Shown here: positions 28,806 to 61,297 of the stretch, one piece after another | How the letters are laid out: each line of letters opens with the position of its first letter | Numbering within the stretch: the first letter of the stretch is position 1 | Sequence record: GQ981382 | Reading direction: 5' to 3' (one strand) | Length of the DNA: 64,000 nt | Source: Shigella phage SP18 | Position numbers and translations under genes: made by a program | Notes under the pieces: generated by a model | Database searches by the model: none | What the model was told of the DNA's origin: nothing | Seen by the model: the letters and a program-made list of their open reading frames with translations, nothing else

Positions 28806-30667
<1,862 letters not shown>

Positions 30668-30701
30668 AATAATTTCCTCAAATTTTATAATCCGTGGGAG
30701 C

Positions 30702-30730
30702 ATTATACTCTGCTCCCATAAGTTTGTACA
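30702..30730 (-). promoter_or_regulatory. early sigma70-type promoter (TGTACA, 17 bp, TATAAT); the -10 sits in the loop of a GGGAGC/GCTCCC hairpin
   Basis: Minus strand reads gtGTACAAacttatgggagcagagTATAATgctccc. Confidence 0.55.
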
Positions 30731-30834
30731 CTACTTTCCAAAAATACCATTTATACACATGCTAAGCACGATTCCAAAACAAAAGCATGTAAAGCCAAAC
30801 AGAATGACATCCGACCCATCGATACAAGACTCAA

Positions 30835-31125
30835 TCATTTGCACTTCTCCTCTTTTAGTTCAGAACGATAATAACATAACATGCCTTTTTGGTCATGTAC
30901 ATACCTTTTTACATCATTCATCCAAATCCTGAATTCTTGCGATGCTTCAAAAGGCATACCAACCCAGGCTTGACCCTCAATTACCTTCACTTCCCATTGC
31001 TGTTTGTAATCAGCCAATGCAACAGGCCAATTAGGATGAACTTGGATTGTGGGCTCCACAACGGGCTTCTGGGCGCATGAAACGAGTCCAATAGCCAAAC
31101 ATACTGCCAGGATAGATTTCATCAT
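30835..31125 (-). CDS. o-spanin (outer-membrane lipoprotein), pseT.2-like
   Basis: 96 aa; signal peptide with lipobox LVSC; start overlaps the i-spanin stop by 4 nt. Confidence 0.7.
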   Translation of the reverse strand: MMKSILAVCLAIGLVSCAQKPVVEPTIQVHPNWPVALADYKQQWEVKVIEGQAWVGMPFEASQEFRIWMNDVKRYVHDQKGMLCYYRSELKEEKCK

Positions 31126-31475
31126 TTGGTGAGCTCCTGGAAGTCCTGGGCGAACTTATCAAATGACTGATTAATCTGTTTTTCGACTAATTTAGGCTTC
31201 GCTGCCACAACCTTAGTACGTTTTGCATCTGCGCGAAGTTTATCATTTTCCTTCTGCAGGTGTTCAACATATTCCTGTCGCTGTTGGTCAAGGAGATTAA
31301 TTTGATTAACCTGGTCTTTTACTGATTGCAGATTTTTCGCATTATCTTCTGCGACTTTGGTGACTTCCGCCACCGCCGTCTTGAGATTATCCACTTTTGC
31401 TTTTAGATAGAAACCACTACCAGCAGTTACTACCAGGGCGAGCATAAGCCCTGTGGTGAGATTACTTATTTGCAT
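31122..31475 (-). CDS. i-spanin (N-terminal transmembrane helix plus coiled coil), pseT.3-like
   Basis: 117 aa; TMD LMLALVVTAGSGFYL followed by a heptad-rich coiled coil. Confidence 0.7.
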   Translation of the reverse strand: MQISNLTTGLMLALVVTAGSGFYLKAKVDNLKTAVAEVTKVAEDNAKNLQSVKDQVNQINLLDQQRQEYVEHLQKENDKLRADAKRTKVVAAKPKLVEKQINQSFDKFAQDFQELTK

Positions 31476-31969
31476 AACTTGATGATTACCTCAACAATAT
31501 CATCCTGGGATAAACCATTCAGGAGGATGTGATTTGTACTGTCAGATGCTGAAATGCGGAACTGATTACCAACTTCATCCGCCATATCATCCTGGGTTAA
31601 CACTGGGTGTTTAATTCCCAGGCGGTGTTGAAGTGTCAGGGGTTCAACCACAACATAACAAACACATCCATTGATATGCACATTAGGTTGGGTCTGATTG
31701 ATGAACACTTCTGCATCATATTTAACCAAATGGTTCTTTAAGAAGTCAACCATTTCGGGAACAGATTCATGAAGGGCTTCTTTCCGCTCTTCTGATTTCT
31801 TATCACGATATTCTTTTTGTTTCGCCTTCAACTTATTATCAGACGCCAGTTTCTTTCTTAAGTCAGTAAGGAACCCAACATTTTTGGAACCTTTATAAAC
31901 ATAGATTCCGTCATGGCGGTCACCATATACATCAACAATCATATCATTTGAAATCAGTTGCATATTCAT
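31466..31969 (-). CDS. alc: Alc-like protein (167 aa), assigned by synteny and size
   Basis: Start at the ATG preceded by GAGGAAA, right after the stop of the upstream 77 aa ORF; occupies the alc position between the spanin genes and rnlA. The T4 Alc sequence is not recalled well enough to confirm. Confidence 0.45.
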   Translation of the reverse strand: MNMQLISNDMIVDVYGDRHDGIYVYKGSKNVGFLTDLRKKLASDNKLKAKQKEYRDKKSEERKEALHESVPEMVDFLKNHLVKYDAEVFINQTQPNVHINGCVCYVVVEPLTLQHRLGIKHPVLTQDDMADEVGNQFRISASDSTNHILLNGLSQDDIVEVIIKLCK

Positions 31970-31982
31970 AATATTTTCCTCA

Positions 31983-32216
31983 TTAGTAGCGGTTGTAACC
32001 TCTAGGACCAAAAGAGTTGGCACCCAGGCGTTCATCTTTCTTTTTGGCTCTTGCTCTAAACCCAGAATCACCTGTTTGAGCTTTCAGTTCTTTTAACAAT
32101 TTGGCCTTCAGGTCAGTAATGAAACCAATCCGGCGGTCTCCCTTGTAGACATAGATTCCGTCATTACTGTCACCATATGCCTGTGTAACTCTTTCATTTG
32201 TAATTAAGTTTAACAT
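31983..32216 (-). CDS. small protein homologous to the N-terminus of the Alc-like gene (partial tandem duplication) with a basic tail
   Basis: YGDSNDGIYVYKGDRRIGFITDLKAKL versus YGDRHDGIYVYKGSKNVGFLTDLRKKL; own GAGGA Shine-Dalgarno and promoter cassette. Confidence 0.55.
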   Translation of the reverse strand: MLNLITNERVTQAYGDSNDGIYVYKGDRRIGFITDLKAKLLKELKAQTGDSGFRARAKKKDERLGANSFGPRGYNRY

Positions 32217-32248
32217 GTTTTAGTCCTCATCAGTAGTTGATGGAACCA

Positions 32249-32276
32249 TTATGTATAGAAAGAAGGGGCTTGTACA
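32249..32276 (-). promoter_or_regulatory. early promoter cassette (TGTACA inside a GGGG/CCCC hairpin, 16 bp, CATAAT) with leader CCATCAACTACTGAT
   Basis: Overlaps the terminator-like hairpin after rnlA. Confidence 0.5.
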
Positions 32277-32286
32277 CCCCTTTTTA

Positions 32287-33423
32287 TTATTCAGGAAGGA
32301 TTACTTCCGCTTGGTAGTCCGACGGAATGTAAAGTTTATGATTTTTAAGGAAAACTTTATTGATTTGAGCAATCGTTTGTTCAGTTTCCTGCGGGCGTTG
32401 ATAGGTGTTCATTAATACGGAGAACAATCCCGGGTACGGTTTACACAACTCTTGACCTTTAATCGCAAACTCGCGACGGTCTTTTCCTGCCAGTTGTTTC
32501 TGGGCATCAAGCAGCAATCCAAGAGTGTTGGACAGATAATCCAGATGTACAATGGTAAAGGCATTAACTTTTTCGCGAGCATAATCATCACCAGTAAACA
32601 TGGCAATAACATCATCTGCGCCGCCGGCAACAACAACTTCAAACAGACGCTCATTATTATTAATGGAGTCTTTAGTATGGTGCAGAGCACAATACCATTC
32701 TGTTTTCAGCTTGAACTTCTGACCACTTGCCAGCTCGTAGACGAAGCCTTCAATCTCTTTCATACCACGAACATTCTCAATGCTCACCAGGTCATATGCT
32801 TCAACCAGGAAAGGACGGAGTGCAGCATCTTTGAACAGCTCAGGATAAGGAATATATTCGCCAGTTTCATTATGACGAACGTTCAGTAAAATCAGGTCAC
32901 GTTCCTGGTAAGGCAAAACAATGCGGTTGGTTGGTGCAACATATTCCATATTGCATGTATAACCAGCTTCAGTGATTTCAGTCACACGAGCCCTGAACGC
33001 TTCACGGTGCGGTTGTTTAAACACCTGCAGAGATTCAGCAGCTTGGGAACTTTTAATCGACCCTTTGGATTTAAAAGCAATATTAGTCTGGTCCATATAA
33101 GTAGAAACCAAGCTACCATCAGCTTTTGCAGTAACCAGGACAACTTCATCAAGGTTAAGGTCCATGGTCATTGGGTTCTCACCCAGATTAAAGAATTTTT
33201 CCATAGGACGGGCAGCAATGCGAACTGGACCATTGTCATCCATTTCAAACATAATGCCGCGGCACTCCAGCGCATCATCAAGAAGCCAATCACTATAGGA
33301 AGCATAGTTATAGCTAAAGATGCGGAACTTAGTTTCAAATGGAGAAACAAAATCCGTATAGAAAAACTTACCTTTATCGGATTCGGCGCAAAGCTTCATT
33401 AAGTTATCATATAATTCAATCAT
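32287..33423 (-). CDS. rnlA: RNA ligase 1
   Basis: 378 aa; KxDG adenylation motif (TAKADGSLVS); RIFSYNYASYSDWLL..ALECRGIMFE colinear with T4 Rnl1. Confidence 0.92.
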   Translation of the reverse strand: MIELYDNLMKLCAESDKGKFFYTDFVSPFETKFRIFSYNYASYSDWLLDDALECRGIMFEMDDNGPVRIAARPMEKFFNLGENPMTMDLNLDEVVLVTAKADGSLVSTYMDQTNIAFKSKGSIKSSQAAESLQVFKQPHREAFRARVTEITEAGYTCNMEYVAPTNRIVLPYQERDLILLNVRHNETGEYIPYPELFKDAALRPFLVEAYDLVSIENVRGMKEIEGFVYELASGQKFKLKTEWYCALHHTKDSINNNERLFEVVVAGGADDVIAMFTGDDYAREKVNAFTIVHLDYLSNTLGLLLDAQKQLAGKDRREFAIKGQELCKPYPGLFSVLMNTYQRPQETEQTIAQINKVFLKNHKLYIPSDYQAEVILPE

Positions 33424-33836
33424 TTCTTCACCTTATGTTGGTAATTCCACGGGGGATTAAAAAGCTTGATGAACATCGGCTCTTCTAGAGACATCGTTTC
33501 GACTGACATTGTGCCAAGTTCATTGGTCATTGACAGATTGAAACATTGTCGTGCATAGAATACCACCTTTTTACCTTCTTGTAAAGCTTCATGTATCATC
33601 CGGGATTTGTTTGAATCACTTGTCTGGTCGATTCGGTTAATCGCAGTCCGGTAATAGTTGATACGCTTCTTAAGGTTGTTCGTCTTACCAATATACACTA
33701 GTTCATCATCAACTGAAATAGCATAGATAACATTTTTCTTGTTTGCGAGAGTAAGAATAGGGATTTTACCATCGACTAACTCCAACTCCGCGTATTTTAT
33801 AAAACTGTATTCATCAGCGATTTGTTTCATGGGCAA
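33420..33836 (-). CDS. denA: endonuclease II (GIY-YIG family)
   Basis: 138 aa; EYSFIKY.ELEL...NVIYAI...DELVYIGKT.NL.KRINYYRTAINR colinear with T4 DenA. Confidence 0.9.
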   Translation of the reverse strand: MPMKQIADEYSFIKYAELELVDGKIPILTLANKKNVIYAISVDDELVYIGKTNNLKKRINYYRTAINRIDQTSDSNKSRMIHEALQEGKKVVFYARQCFNLSMTNELGTMSVETMSLEEPMFIKLFNPPWNYQHKVKK

Positions 33837-33856
33837 AAAGGGCCGAAGCCCTTTCC
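33837..33856 (-). terminator. hairpin (AAGGGCTTCGGCCCTT) plus T-run between nrdB and denA
   Basis: GC stem with TTCG loop; probably an attenuator, since denA starts immediately after. Confidence 0.5.
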
Positions 33857-35035
33857 TTATAGATATTTACGGAAACCAGCAAGAACATTCTCATCGACGT
33901 CATTGTCAATCTGGGCTACCAGGTAAGCAGACAACTCAACTTCTTGTGGGGCAGATTGCACATTATCAGAGTTAAGATATTCGCGAATCCATGGAATCGG
34001 GTGCTTAGTAGATTCTAACACGATTTCACAAGGGAGACCGCATTGCTTCATACGAGAAACTGTCAGGTAATCGATAAAACGGTTAAGAATCTCGACGCTC
34101 AACCCAGGGAGTCCACCATCTTTAAACAGATGCACGGCCCATTCTTTTTCCTGGCGATTAACTTCCATGAAAATGGCTGCGGCTTCTGCTTCACATTCGT
34201 GTGCGATTTTAACCCATTCGTCACCGTCAACACCAGTTTGCAGCTGACGAAGAATATATTGGGTCCCCTTAAGGTGGAGCTGTTCATCACGGGCGATGAA
34301 CTTCATTATCTTCGCATTACCTTCCATGATTTCCATGTTCTTATGGAAGTTGAAAGTACAAGCAAAAGATACATAAAAACGAATAGCTTCCAGGGCGTTA
34401 ATAACGTGCAGGCAGAGATAAAGAGACTTCATCAATGCTCGTTTGGCGATAGATTCTTGTTTGATAGCTCGTTCCAAACGTTCGTCCGCTTCGGGAGTTT
34501 CTTTGGCCAGTTCAACAAAAGCAATCTGGTTTTGCCATTGACGAGTTTTATTCAGAACATCATCATAGTAATGACCAATGGATTCTGCACGCTTCATGAT
34601 TGCATCATCTAACAGGATTTCGTCGAATACTTTCGCCGGGTCCGTGTAGAGATTTCGCATGATGTGCGTATAAGAACGAGAGTGAATTGTCTCGCTGAAT
34701 GTCCAGGTCTGAATCCATGTATCAAGACTCGGGTCAGAAACTAATGCGGCTAATGCTGCAGCTGGAGCACGACCCTGAATACTATCCAGAAGTGATTGGT
34801 ATTTCAGGTTGTTGGTAAAAATATTTTGTTGATGTTCAGGAAGCTTATTAAATTGGGCTCCATCCATCATCAGGTTTACTTCCTCTGGACGCCAGAAGAA
34901 TGATAATTGCTTTTCTGTTAATTCTTCGAAAACTTTATGGCGCTGGATATCATAACGGGCGATGCCCAATCCTGAACCGAAGAACATCGGCTCGGTTAAA
35001 ACATCCACTGGAGTGGTATTAAAAACTGTACTCAT
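33857..35035 (-). CDS. nrdB: ribonucleotide reductase small (beta) subunit, intron-less
   Basis: 392 aa continuous ORF with the di-iron ligand pattern; no intron or intron-encoded ORF (T4 nrdB carries a group I intron). Confidence 0.92.
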   Translation of the reverse strand: MSTVFNTTPVDVLTEPMFFGSGLGIARYDIQRHKVFEELTEKQLSFFWRPEEVNLMMDGAQFNKLPEHQQNIFTNNLKYQSLLDSIQGRAPAAALAALVSDPSLDTWIQTWTFSETIHSRSYTHIMRNLYTDPAKVFDEILLDDAIMKRAESIGHYYDDVLNKTRQWQNQIAFVELAKETPEADERLERAIKQESIAKRALMKSLYLCLHVINALEAIRFYVSFACTFNFHKNMEIMEGNAKIMKFIARDEQLHLKGTQYILRQLQTGVDGDEWVKIAHECEAEAAAIFMEVNRQEKEWAVHLFKDGGLPGLSVEILNRFIDYLTVSRMKQCGLPCEIVLESTKHPIPWIREYLNSDNVQSAPQEVELSAYLVAQIDNDVDENVLAGFRKYL

Positions 35036-35073
35036 TTTATTTCCTCAATAGCTCATCCATGAGCATAATTATA

Positions 35074-37329
35074 TCAAAGTTTACAGGCGGAGCAGTCTTC
35101 TGCTTTAGGAGCTTCGATTTCGTAATCGTCTGTTCCGGAACCATCTCTAGTGTTATGATAATAAAGGTTTTTTCCGCCAAAATACCAGAAGTACATCAGG
35201 TCGTCAAGCATAACAGACATCGGAACTTTTCCTTTCGGATAATTCTGTGGGTCATAATATGTATTGGCTGATGCTGACTGACAAATCCATTTCAACATAA
35301 TCGCGACTTGTGTCAGATAAGGTTTGTTACCCTGCTTAGCTAGCACCCATGCGTAATCGTACAATCCTTTATTGTGCTCAATATTGGGCACGACTTGATT
35401 AAAGGAACCCTCTTTTGACTCTTTAATAGAGACTGGTCCACGCGGAGGTTCGATACCGTTTGTACTGTTAGAAACTTGGGAAGATGACTCACAAGGCATA
35501 AGTGCTGATAATGTGCTATTACGGATGCCATGTTCAACCAGGTCTTCCCGCAACTGCGCCCAGTCACAAACGTAGTTTGGAGCTGCGATTTGGTCAATCT
35601 TTTTATTGTACCAGTCGATAGGTAATTCGCCTCGAGCCCAACGAGTGTCTGAATAATATTCGCAAGGTCCTTTTTCTTTGGCGAGCTTGATTGATGCTCG
35701 GATAAGGCCATATTGTAATCTCTCGAACAGTTCATGTGTTAAATCATTTGCATCAGCGTAGGAAGCGAAATTGCTTGCCAGCCATGCAGCATAGTTAGTA
35801 ACCCCAACACCCAGGTTGCGGCGTTTTTTGGCTTTCAGAGCTTCTTTAACCGGATAACCCTGATAGTCCAACAGGTTATCAAGAGCACGAACTTGAACTT
35901 CAGCCAGCTCGTTAATCTTATCTTGGTCCTGCCAGTCAAAACTATCCAGAACAAATGCAGACAATGTGCACAATCCGATTTCAGCGTCTTCGCTGTTCAC
36001 ATCAGTAGTCGGGATTGCAATTTCGCAGCAAAGGTTTGATTGACGAATCGGAGCCTTATCACGGATGAACGGAGTGTAGTCATTCACGTTATCGACGAAC
36101 TGCGGATAAACCCTGGCTGTACCGGAACGTTCAGTCATGAATAATTCGAATACATCTTTTGCTTTGATACGCTTCTTACGAACTGTCGGGTCTTTTTCCA
36201 AGGCTTCATATAACTCGCGGAATTTATCCGGGTTATCAAAATATGAATAATACAATTCACCGCCAGCTTCGTGCGGACTAAACAGAGTGATGTAATCATT
36301 CTTAGCCAGACGTTCCATCATCAGGTTATTCAGCTGGACACCATAGTCCATATGTCTGATGCGGTTTTCTTCAACGCCCTTGTTGTTCTTCAGAACGAGT
36401 AAATTTTCAACTTCCAAATGCCAAATAGGATAATAAGCAGTAGCAGCGCCGCCACGGATTCCACCTTGTGAACATGATTTAACAGCCGTTTGGAAATGTT
36501 TCCAGAACGGAATAACACCAGTATGCTTAACTTCGCCCATACCGATTTTCGAACCTTCGGCACGAATCATGCCAACGTTGATACCGATACCTGCACGCTT
36601 ACTGATATATTCGATGATTGAATTAGCAGTCTTATTAATTGACTTCAGGGAGTCAGCCGCTTCGATAACCACGCAGGAACTGAACTGTCTGGTAGGTGTT
36701 CTGGCGCCGGCCATGATAGGCGTGGGCAACGAAACCTGTCGAGTGGATACTGCATCATAAAAACGGCAAACGTGCTTCAGACGGTCCGTTGGTTCATCCT
36801 GGTGCAGTGCCATGCCGATAGCCATGATTGCGAATTGCGGAGTCTCGTAGATTTTCCCAGTGGTTTTATCTTTAACCAGGTATTTTTCTTTAAGCTGCAT
36901 CGCGCCTGCATAAGTCAAGTCAAAATCACGTTCGTGTTTGATACGAGATTCCAGATAAGTAATCTCTTCGGCCGAGTAGCTTGACAACAGTTCCGGGTCG
37001 TATTTGCCTTCATTGACACAATAAGAAATCTGGTCAATAAAAGAACGCGGTTCGAACTGGCCATAAACATCTTTACGCAGAGCAAACATCGTAGCCTTCG
37101 CTGCAACGTATTGGTAATCTGGTTCTTCAACCGAGATAAGCCCAGCAGACACTTTGATGATAACCGTCTGAATATCGCGAGTAGTCATACCATCGCGCAG
37201 GTGTGGTTTGATTGTTTCGTATAATTCATACGGGTCGATATTGGTTCCTTCACATGACCAGGAAAGAACTTTAATAATTTTCTGGCCATCAAAATCTTGA
37301 GATACGCCACTACTTTTTTGTACTTGCAT
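35074..37329 (-). CDS. nrdA: ribonucleotide reductase large (alpha) subunit
   Basis: 751 aa; ATP-cone N-terminus; class Ia signature blocks (GIGINVG, NLCCEIA, MPCESSSQ). Confidence 0.93.
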   Translation of the reverse strand: MQVQKSSGVSQDFDGQKIIKVLSWSCEGTNIDPYELYETIKPHLRDGMTTRDIQTVIIKVSAGLISVEEPDYQYVAAKATMFALRKDVYGQFEPRSFIDQISYCVNEGKYDPELLSSYSAEEITYLESRIKHERDFDLTYAGAMQLKEKYLVKDKTTGKIYETPQFAIMAIGMALHQDEPTDRLKHVCRFYDAVSTRQVSLPTPIMAGARTPTRQFSSCVVIEAADSLKSINKTANSIIEYISKRAGIGINVGMIRAEGSKIGMGEVKHTGVIPFWKHFQTAVKSCSQGGIRGGAATAYYPIWHLEVENLLVLKNNKGVEENRIRHMDYGVQLNNLMMERLAKNDYITLFSPHEAGGELYYSYFDNPDKFRELYEALEKDPTVRKKRIKAKDVFELFMTERSGTARVYPQFVDNVNDYTPFIRDKAPIRQSNLCCEIAIPTTDVNSEDAEIGLCTLSAFVLDSFDWQDQDKINELAEVQVRALDNLLDYQGYPVKEALKAKKRRNLGVGVTNYAAWLASNFASYADANDLTHELFERLQYGLIRASIKLAKEKGPCEYYSDTRWARGELPIDWYNKKIDQIAAPNYVCDWAQLREDLVEHGIRNSTLSALMPCESSSQVSNSTNGIEPPRGPVSIKESKEGSFNQVVPNIEHNKGLYDYAWVLAKQGNKPYLTQVAIMLKWICQSASANTYYDPQNYPKGKVPMSVMLDDLMYFWYFGGKNLYYHNTRDGSGTDDYEIEAPKAEDCSACKL

Positions 37330-60140: not shown

Positions 60141-60169
60141 ATTATACTCTGACCCCAAGAGTTTGTACA
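60141..60169 (-). promoter_or_regulatory. early sigma70-type promoter (TGTACA, 17 bp, TATAAT); the -10 lies in the loop of a GGGGTCA/TGACCCC hairpin
   Basis: Same architecture as at 30702 and 60548. Confidence 0.55.
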
Positions 60170-60508
60170 CTATTTTTGAAGTTGTTCTAAAATAAATCCA
60201 GAAGTATAAAGGCTTGCATTATACAGGCGGTCAAGAGACAGTGAATCCAATCCATAAGCTTCACGAATTGCATTAATAACACTTTCATAACTTGTATAAT
60301 AAACATCACCGCGGTCCATAGTCATGCGGAACTTAATAAATTTGTAGAAACCAGTTTCAGGGTCCTGATAGAATGCAAATTCTGCAGACATCAAATTTTT
60401 AAGGTTAACAGCTTTTGTACCACCTGAATAACTTAAATCAAATGCTTCTGATATGCTAATCTGTTTAAAGAACATAATGTTGCGATTACCAAAAAAGATT
60501 TTAGACAT
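60170..60508 (-). CDS. hypothetical protein (ndd.1-like position)
   Basis: 112 aa ORF with GAGGAAA Shine-Dalgarno. Confidence 0.55.
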   Translation of the reverse strand: MSKIFFGNRNIMFFKQISISEAFDLSYSGGTKAVNLKNLMSAEFAFYQDPETGFYKFIKFRMTMDRGDVYYTSYESVINAIREAYGLDSLSLDRLYNASLYTSGFILEQLQK

Positions 60509-60547: not shown

Positions 60548-60576
60548 ATTATACTCTGCTCCCAAGAGTTTGTACA
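60548..60576 (-). promoter_or_regulatory. early sigma70-type promoter (TGTACA, 17 bp, TATAAT), hairpin-embedded variant
   Basis: Near-identical to the cassette at 60141. Confidence 0.55.
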
Positions 60577-60822
60577 CTATTCTACATCAACTGCGTCATC
60601 CCACAAGTCAACTTCTTCTGATGATTCCATCAGTTCATCAACTGTGAAGCACTCAGTATTATTTTCAATTGCAAAACGCTTCTGATAAAAAGGATAATCC
60701 AAACAGTTTTCAGTGCGCACAGGACGTTCACTATTATCCATTAAAGGCGAAATGCGAATCAGTTGTTGACCATTACCCAGGACAAATTTTTCACCAACTA
60801 CAATGTCTTTAAAAAGTTTCAT
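60577..60822 (-). CDS. hypothetical protein
   Basis: 81 aa ORF; ATG overlaps the upstream stop (ATGA); GGAG Shine-Dalgarno. Confidence 0.5.
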   Translation of the reverse strand: MKLFKDIVVGEKFVLGNGQQLIRISPLMDNSERPVRTENCLDYPFYQKRFAIENNTECFTVDELMESSEEVDLWDDAVDVE

Positions 60823-61178: not shown

Positions 61179-61206
61179 ATTATACTACAACCACCGGAGA
61201 TGTACA
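61179..61206 (-). promoter_or_regulatory. early sigma70-type promoter (TGTACA, 16 bp, TATAAT) with CCATCAACTACTGG leader variant
   Basis: Upstream of a short hydrophobic ORF (~40 aa, not annotated). Confidence 0.45.
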
Positions 61207-61297
61207 CTCTTTTACGCAAGTTTCAATAATAATAAACTAAAACAAACACAAATTACTGGGATGCACAACATCCAGATAAAACACCAGGTTCTGCTGC

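Follow-up and report, generated by a model that had tools for sequence, protein, structure and literature searches.

A short Alc-like gene upstream of alc in VR7-like T4-type coliphages: probable origin by partial tandem duplication and a selected C-terminal tail

Directly upstream of the alc gene of Shigella phage SP18 (GQ981382), a VR7-like T4-type coliphage of the genus Gaprivervirus, lies a 77 amino acid (aa) open reading frame (ORF), called mini-Alc here, which is with little doubt a real, duplicated and functional gene. Comparison of the two sequences suggests that its origin was a single, old tandem duplication covering part of alc, namely the 5' untranslated region (5'UTR) and approximately the first 70 codons, and the C-terminal tail of its product is under purifying selection. 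The overall explanation preferred here, with a probability of roughly 0.55, is that of a selected duplicate gene, read in an early operon with alc, whose product would be a modulator acting through the partner of the N-terminal module of Alc. All coordinates refer to the window, i.e., the whole stretch of 64,000 nucleotides (nt) of SP18 DNA that was analyzed.

Relationship of the Short ORF to Alc

The ORF listing places the short ORF at 32216..31983 and its longer neighbor at 31969..31466, both on the minus strand, in agreement with an earlier reading of the bare sequence (the original prediction). The elements of the duplicated region are the following.

32224..32247, minus strand: first copy of the 5'UTR, GGTTCCATCAACTACTGATGAGGA, which includes the Shine-Dalgarno sequence of mini-Alc; on its left the repeat begins directly 3' of the -10 element
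32216..31983, minus strand: 77 aa ORF (mini-Alc), phrog_17715, N-terminal part of Pfam PF17527
31977..32000, minus strand: second copy of the 5'UTR, GGTTACAACCGCTACTAATGAGGA, 19/24 identical to the first copy, bearing the Shine-Dalgarno sequence of alc
31969..31466, minus strand: full-length alc, 167 aa, Pfam PF17527 and phrog_1253, made of the second repeat unit and the unique C-terminal alpha/beta domain

The 167 aa ORF, originally predicted to be Alc-like, is a full-length Alc homologue by PF17527 (E 2.9e-50, 170.8 bits, profile positions 1–176 of 177), and it matches phrog_1253 with E 1.4e-74. The 77 aa ORF matches the same profile at positions 3–62 of 177 only, with 42.5 bits and E 7.3e-11, the curated cut-off of PF17527 being 25 bits. 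Its residues 1–77 match positions 1–77 of the phrog_17715 profile (E 2.9e-53), and it is 94% identical to its counterpart in VR7. In BLASTP it shares 27 of 62 residues (44%, E 3e-16) with the neighboring Alc. Residues I5, G15, D19, G20, I21, G31, D35, and L36 of the short copy correspond to Alc I6, G16, D20, G21, I22, G32, and the near-invariant D36 and L37, respectively, and the invariants of the Alc N-terminal module are kept in the short proteins of all three lineages carrying them, the sole exception being G20E in the uncultured L006. Judged by the architecture of a full-length Alc, the 167 aa neighbor qualifies and the 77 aa ORF does not, having no equivalent of Alc residues ~65–167; the Alc invariants N91, Q94, P95, N96, V97, Y105, G118, and C166 fall beyond its end. 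Neither of the two outcomes that would have refuted the original prediction applies: the 167 aa ORF is a true Alc homologue, and the short ORF is no named T4 gene of other descent, alc coming straight after rnlA in T6 (a Tequatrovirus of the T4 type) and elsewhere among the lineages compared.

The AlphaFold2 model of Alc, built with 27 homologues, has a mean predicted local distance difference test (pLDDT) score of 93 and a predicted template modeling (pTM) score of 0.71. It consists of a short helix (residues 8–15), a beta-hairpin (23–33), a long and highly charged helix (34–80), and a C-terminal alpha/beta domain (87–166). The model of mini-Alc is confident for residues 1–45 only, where it repeats the Alc fold from the short helix through the hairpin into the beginning of the long helix. 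Residues 1–47 (32216..32076) correspond to the Alc N-terminal module, and the tail that follows has a pLDDT of ~50 and is probably disordered or flexible. As modeled, mini-Alc is the "head" of Alc with a flexible basic tail and without the C-terminal domain. A sequence search of the PDB gave no relative of Alc, and the mini-Alc model matched no PDB fold significantly; PADLOC (defense and anti-defense systems) and NCBIfam gave no match.

Anatomy of the Duplication

When both genes are aligned as DNA with 60 nt upstream of each, 91 of 139 positions are identical, beginning 31 nt 5' of each ATG, so that the similarity originally claimed at both the protein and the nucleotide level is present at both. 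Both nucleotide strings quoted for it are present in reverse-complement form, the short ORF having atatggtgacagtaatgacgg and alc atatggtgaccgccatgacgg. The spacing from ATG to ATG, which is the repeat period, is 247 nt. The duplicated unit consists of the alc 5'UTR with its Shine-Dalgarno sequence and ~70 codons, giving the arrangement 5'UTR and N-terminal part, followed by 5'UTR, N-terminal part and C-terminal part. The second 5'UTR copy doubles as the 3' end of mini-Alc, where it codes for GYNRY and the stop codon. The first copy has ATGAGGACT in common with the T6 alc leader, and the second has ATGAGGAAAATATTATG in common with the alc leaders of L008 and L011, two lineages without the short gene. 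The partial tandem duplication of the original prediction is thereby borne out and also sharpened, as the repeat takes in the 5'UTR with its Shine-Dalgarno sequence and the stop codon of the short ORF lies inside the second 5'UTR copy. Two smaller features of the same prediction, a Shine-Dalgarno sequence of the short ORF (GAGGA at 32228..32224) and a basic tail (net charge of ~+4.4 over residues 48–77), are found as well.

Selection on mini-Alc and its Tail

Residues invariant across the short proteins are M1, N3, L4, I5, Y14, G15, D19, I21, Y22, K25, G26, R29, G31, F32, D35, L36, and K42. In the tail (residues 48–77, 32075..31986) G52, F53, R63, G65, N67, S68, F69, G70, P71, and N75, including a G-x-NSFGP motif, are invariant across the three lineages, and a net charge of ~+4.5 is kept in all three. 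The tail motif (GF...RxGxNSFGP...N) is new and has no counterpart in Alc. Peptides expected of a 77 aa product would include GDRRIGFITDLK and LGANSFGPR.

Among 13 Gaprivervirus genomes the Nei-Gojobori ratio of non-synonymous to synonymous substitution rates (dN/dS) comes to 0.115 in the short ORF vs. 0.090 in alc. The short ORF has 16 synonymous and 6 non-synonymous segregating sites, against a neutral expectation of 78% non-synonymous sites (binomial P = 7e-7). In tail codons 46–77 dN/dS is 0.047 with dS of 0.22, and the segregating sites are 10 synonymous to 1 non-synonymous (P = 6e-6); an AGA/CGG pair, for example, retains Arg. Between the lineages dS is saturated, yet the length of the short gene stays at 77, 77, and 78 aa; dN between lineages is 0.5–0.6 for the short gene vs. 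0.15–0.2 for alc.

The alc gene itself has a short hypervariable patch within the part coding for the N-terminal module, at codons ~10–43 (31842–31940), where two allele groups differ at 16–17 of 60 nt, with flanks differing by <5%. Group 1 comprises the window, VR7, VR25, and VR26, and group 2 the other genomes examined; outside the patch the window is near-identical to UPEC01. In alc, dS is 0.51 in codons 1–50 vs. 0.11 in the remainder, and 14 non-synonymous sites fall in codons 1–50 vs. 2 in codons 51–167. The patch looks like the result of short-patch recombination. Gene conversion from mini-Alc was considered as its source and rejected, both alc alleles being equally far from the short copy (59–63% nt identity).

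Distribution and Age

An Alc homologue is encoded in 1,141 of the 50,697 phage records surveyed. The short ORF is present over at least 80% of its length in 33 records, 32 of them with at least 90% identity, while some 1,100 further phage records with an Alc lack it. By megablast all 32 matched VR7-like records cover the region, and the ORF is intact in each of the 13 Gaprivervirus genomes read directly. Sister lineages, located via metagenomic relatives of Alc, extend this range: the uncultured L005/L006 have a short gene of 77 aa and the uncultured L007 one of 78 aa, in both cases between rnlA and alc, with Alc proteins 78 and 80% identical to that of the window, respectively. The duplication is accordingly not private to this genome, being found also in at least two uncultured lineages. 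The next-closest Alc lineages, L008–L013 (62–63% Alc identity), have rnlA followed directly by alc and no short gene.

Larger protein collections add little. A word-indexed search of 5.8 billion proteins gave 2 clusters, and phmmer, run exhaustively against 1.84 billion cluster representatives, gave only two true short clusters; its other matches were a T4-type Alc of 63 aa with a frameshift, and long repeat proteins that are spurious. Matches in IMG/VR are VR20, VR25, and VR26 only, and a scan of JGI metagenomes found one more short-ORF locus (L023, near-identical) as well as two loci with ordinary full-length alc (L024 and L025). A mini-Alc without an adjacent full-length alc was never met in the databases searched. 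The 63 aa protein, P0039, begins with the N-terminus of a T4-type Alc, continues out of frame, and does not belong to the mini-Alc family; it looks like a frameshifted alc, due either to natural mutation or to a sequencing error, and BFVD A0A3S7GSC5 (63 aa, Escherichia phage vB_EcoM-G28) may be the same protein.

Pairwise identity among the three short versions is 45–62%. Their shared length, position, and non-Alc tail argue for a single origin before the three lineages split, i.e., for a duplication that would predate the separation of the VR7-like phages from at least two uncultured sister lineages. Protein identities to the window for three flanking genes and alc are as follows:

NrdB: L005 83%, L008 80%
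DenA: L005 82%, L008 85%
RnlA: L005 53%, L008 56%
Alc: L005 78%, L008 63%

By flanking genes, L005 and the duplication-free L008 are about equally distant from the window, and either the mini-alc/alc cassette moved between lineages, or L008-like phages lost it or never had it. Over 29445–35035 of the window, Alc (78% identical to that of L005) is far better conserved than its neighbors RnlA (53%), PseT (53%), and PseT.3 (42%). In the Alc of L008 the C-terminal half is near the mini-Alc clade and the N-terminal 45 residues are very divergent. Cassette exchange or a chimeric alc is a possible reason for the pattern of Alc in L008 and L005.

Gene Order, Promoter and Probable Translational Coupling

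The short ORF occupies the locus of the Alc family, the interval between rnlA and the pseT.3/pseT.2 spanin genes, on the same strand and with an early-type promoter upstream. The surrounding features are listed below, the nrdB, denA-like, and rnlA genes as given by the ORF listing and family searches.

35035..33857, minus strand: nrdB
33836..33420, minus strand: denA-like GIY-YIG endonuclease gene
33423..32287, minus strand: rnlA
32263..32282, minus strand: hairpin just past the rnlA stop codon, AAGGGGTGTACAAGCCCCTT, then CTTTCT; intrinsic-terminator-like
32277..32248, minus strand: T4-early-type promoter, GTGTAC-18 nt-CATAAT (in the scan TGTACA-17-CATAAT, 32276..32248)
beyond alc, minus strand, in this order: spanin genes pseT.3 and pseT.2, a small ORF, pseT

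The 1.2 kb surrounding the locus are 99.7% identical to Escherichia phage 212 and 94–96% identical to VR7, VR20, VR25, and VR26.

In phages without the duplication (T6, L008, L011, and L013) a GTTTAC-18 nt-TAnnnT promoter lies in the rnlA–alc spacer, and in the lineages with it (the window, L005, and L007) a promoter of equal geometry lies between rnlA and the short ORF. Since the breakpoint of the repeat falls directly after the -10 element, the second copy has the leader and lacks the promoter. A sigma-70 promoter scan of the minus strand found nothing promoter-like between the short ORF and alc, and by eye there is no internal middle (MotA-box TGCTT) or late (TATAAATA) promoter in the short ORF. 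The original prediction described the short ORF as independent and as having its own promoter cassette. The ORF is indeed separate and intact and a promoter-like site does precede it, but this site is the ancestral alc early promoter, shared by the two genes, with no extra cassette, and independent transcription is unlikely; the predicted promoter probably drives the short ORF and alc together. The stop codon of the short ORF is on or abuts the alc Shine-Dalgarno sequence in all three lineages (TAATGAGGA in the window; TGAGGA in VR7, L005, and L007). Taken together, these signals make it likely that mini-alc and alc form one early operon, co-transcribed and translationally coupled.

The loop and stem of the rnlA hairpin contain the -35 element (GTGTACA) of the mini-alc/alc promoter, i.e., the terminator-like site and the promoter overlap. 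Early-promoter-like sites of the form GTGTAC-N(16–18)-TATAAT occur on the minus strand at 30702–30731, 60141–60170, 60548–60577, and 61179–61207, where shuffled sequences predict 1.1, and the first three share a cassette of 30 nt that is nearly the same in each (GTGTACAAACTYWTGGGRKCAGAGTATAAT). GTTTAC-type sites number five in the window, all on the minus strand. GTGTAC seems to be a common, normal -35 variant for this phage. An RNA element at the gene junction was also considered and rejected, there being no Rfam match in 29000–36000 and a fold no better than that of shuffles (z = +0.5).

The starts of both genes are variously drawn. Most VR7-like genomes, and L005/L006 too, have an in-frame upstream ATG from which the short ORF would be 88 aa long (MVPSTTDEDQN-MLNL...), and a TAA (gaggacTAAaac, 32220–32222) shuts this extension in the window, UPEC01, and ECML-359, which supports the ATG at 32216 with GAGGA as the true start. 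Gene calls frequently extend alc upstream to 188–189 aa (31970–32071 in the window; also P0003, P0004, OQ845958, PP693301, and MW233709). The extended start overlaps the final ~50 nt of mini-Alc in another frame, and the extra residues differ freely among genomes; the extension is probably an annotation artefact.

Proposed Function and Alternative Explanations

T4 Alc binds the host RNA polymerase and terminates transcription selectively on deoxycytidine-containing DNA (dC-DNA; PMC2988021, PMC2939025). The paf mutations, which block Alc function, affect R368 and P372 of the beta-subunit, near the main-channel entrance, a site at which Alc, once bound, could have access to the downstream duplex or the non-template strand and read it (PMC2988021, PMC2939025). 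In the proposed mechanism the ancestral alc promoter would drive, early in infection, a mini-alc/alc operon in which mini-alc comes first, and the mini-alc stop codon on the alc Shine-Dalgarno sequence would couple translation, both proteins being made together. Mini-Alc would then occupy the partner of the Alc N-terminal module, either the host RNA polymerase near the paf site of the beta-subunit or Alc itself. Without the C-terminal domain, it would modulate Alc-dependent host termination (attenuate, time, or assist it) and would cause no termination alone. As all invariants of the head are kept and mini-Alc is apparently co-produced with Alc, occupancy of this partner is the most economical model; action through the partner of the Alc N-terminal module is proposed tentatively, at somewhat less than even odds. 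The selected new tail suggests an added interaction. The role put forward in the original prediction, that of a truncated paralog or regulator of the full-length protein, would fit these observations. It is a good deal less probable that mini-Alc is a stand-alone docking module, for RNA polymerase or for Alc, and serves as a built-in Alc modulator, for example by limiting termination on the phage's own DNA.

Several points weigh against the preferred explanation. Docking on RNA polymerase is assigned to the Alc N-terminal module by inference, and the expression of mini-alc/alc is deduced from sequence signals. The approximately threefold faster evolution of mini-Alc compared to Alc could mean another partner. 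The grouping of the short proteins in a neighbor-joining tree has a bootstrap of 24% on 47 alignment columns. Finally, a metagenomic variant (P0002, an ENA contig of 9.3 kb) has a deletion and frameshift in the tail: it encodes a 75 aa mini-Alc with a deletion after ...GFRA, in which the basic segment is gone and the frameshift runs through the alc start; it is either a true tail-loss variant or an assembly error.

The main rival explanation, considered rather unlikely, is that mini-Alc is a neofunctionalised paralog, in which the Alc N-terminal fold serves as a scaffold and the basic NSFGP tail acts on nucleic acid, the nucleoid (alc has an unf phenotype) or another host protein, independently of Alc and the paf site. 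It would fit with the tail being the most constrained part of the protein within the genus (10 synonymous to 1 non-synonymous sites, dN/dS 0.047), having no Alc counterpart and keeping its charge of ~+4.5 in three lineages, and with the faster divergence of mini-Alc than of Alc. A protein freed from Alc is harder to reconcile with the retention of all Alc N-terminal invariants (barring G20E in L006), and with a gene always found directly upstream of full-length alc, with its stop codon overlapping the alc Shine-Dalgarno sequence, and never alone in the databases searched. The same junction is what would recommend a regulatory upstream ORF, whose translation itself feeds ribosomes to the alc start and sets the level of Alc, the peptide being functionless: the stop codon is at or next to the alc Shine-Dalgarno sequence in three lineages and no promoter separates the genes. 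However, purifying selection at the amino acid level extends along the whole ORF, motifs and length (77/77/78 aa) are kept despite saturated synonymous sites, and the junction has no unusual RNA structure (z = +0.5) or Rfam match, which leaves this explanation distinctly improbable.

The origin of the gene also has an alternative, namely that recombination brought in a 5' fragment of alc from another T4-like lineage and placed it ahead of the resident gene. Over 55 residues mini-Alc and T2/T6-type Alc share 54.5% identity, as compared to 44% for mini-Alc and its own neighbor. On the other hand, the homology reaches into the 5'UTR, the breakpoints fit a 247 nt head-to-tail repeat, the mini-Alc of L005 is nearest to the Alc of the resident clade (64%, vs. 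45% to T6 Alc), and the neighbor-joining tree sets the short proteins beside the resident Alc group, with weak support. With the leader duplicated too and the L005 short protein nearest to resident-type Alc, a Tequatrovirus-type alc was rejected as the main explanation of the source, and acquisition from outside is held to be highly improbable. Least probable, and all but excluded, is a functionless ORF, whether a decaying remnant or a gene-caller artefact. Such an ORF could be expected to be short and lineage-restricted, as mini-Alc is, and the tail is frameshifted in P0002 and the gene called hypothetical in many records. Against this stand the intact ORF and constant length across saturated synonymous divergence, the excess of synonymous changes (P = 7e-7), and a proper Shine-Dalgarno sequence.

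Relation to Known Proteins

T4 Alc (alc/unf) is homologous to mini-Alc over the N-terminal ~47–60 residues, and its gene has the same locus, early promoter, and 5'UTR. Unlike T4 Alc, mini-Alc lacks ~100 residues, from halfway along the long helix to the end of the C-terminal domain (with the invariant QPNV, Y105, G118, and C166), has the basic NSFGP tail, and coexists with a full-length Alc. Structurally there is no difference between mini-Alc and VR7 gp243 (VR7ORF243c, YP_004063924), or phrog_17715 "inhibitor of host transcription," which are the same gene. The VR7 record of 2010 already annotates VR7ORF243c as "similar to bacteriophage T4 Alc." RefSeq and PHROG name the short gene "inhibitor of host transcription," and in other records it is hypothetical or, in one, a "PRC domain-containing protein"; the Alc-like labels are name transfers only. 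In the literature searched, no paper was found on the short paralog, its origin or its function.

By analogy, mini-Alc may be likened to regulators of the microProtein type, truncation-derived paralogs that titrate the full-length protein or its partner: it keeps one module, is devoid of the presumed effector or sensor domain, and appears to be co-expressed. Unlike in passive microProtein titration, the conserved new tail suggests more, and the binding is only inferred. T4 MotA is a two-domain regulator of the host RNA polymerase, in which the C-terminal "double-wing" domain reads phage DNA.

Significance

The analysis adds how the repeat is built, that both genes share a promoter and are likely coupled, how old the duplication is and that sister lineages have it too, and that the new tail is under selection. 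In evolutionary terms the case exemplifies how a partial tandem duplication can become a small gene whose conserved tail is new; otherwise the feature is modest and lineage-restricted. The mechanism of Alc, which somehow senses cytosine modification, has been unexplained for ~30 years (PMC2988021, PMC2939025). In one expression survey, T4 Alc made as a recombinant protein proved insoluble (PMC8076793). A natural, selected 8.7 kDa protein consisting of the Alc N-terminal module offers a reagent for asking which half of Alc binds polymerase and which reads DNA, and if mini-Alc were a stand-alone docking modulator, it would be the first domain-level handle on how Alc works.

The finding may also bear on how a clade without the hydroxymethylcytosine pathway copes with having an Alc homologue. 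The phages of Gaprivervirus, which are the carriers sampled best, are reported to be without the gene for deoxycytidine monophosphate (dCMP) hydroxymethylase (gp42) and to have alc, denA, denB, and a deoxycytidine triphosphatase (dCTPase; PMC8056088, PMC12115623). Given this reported gene content, a modulator of Alc might matter in the gp42-lacking setting of these phages.

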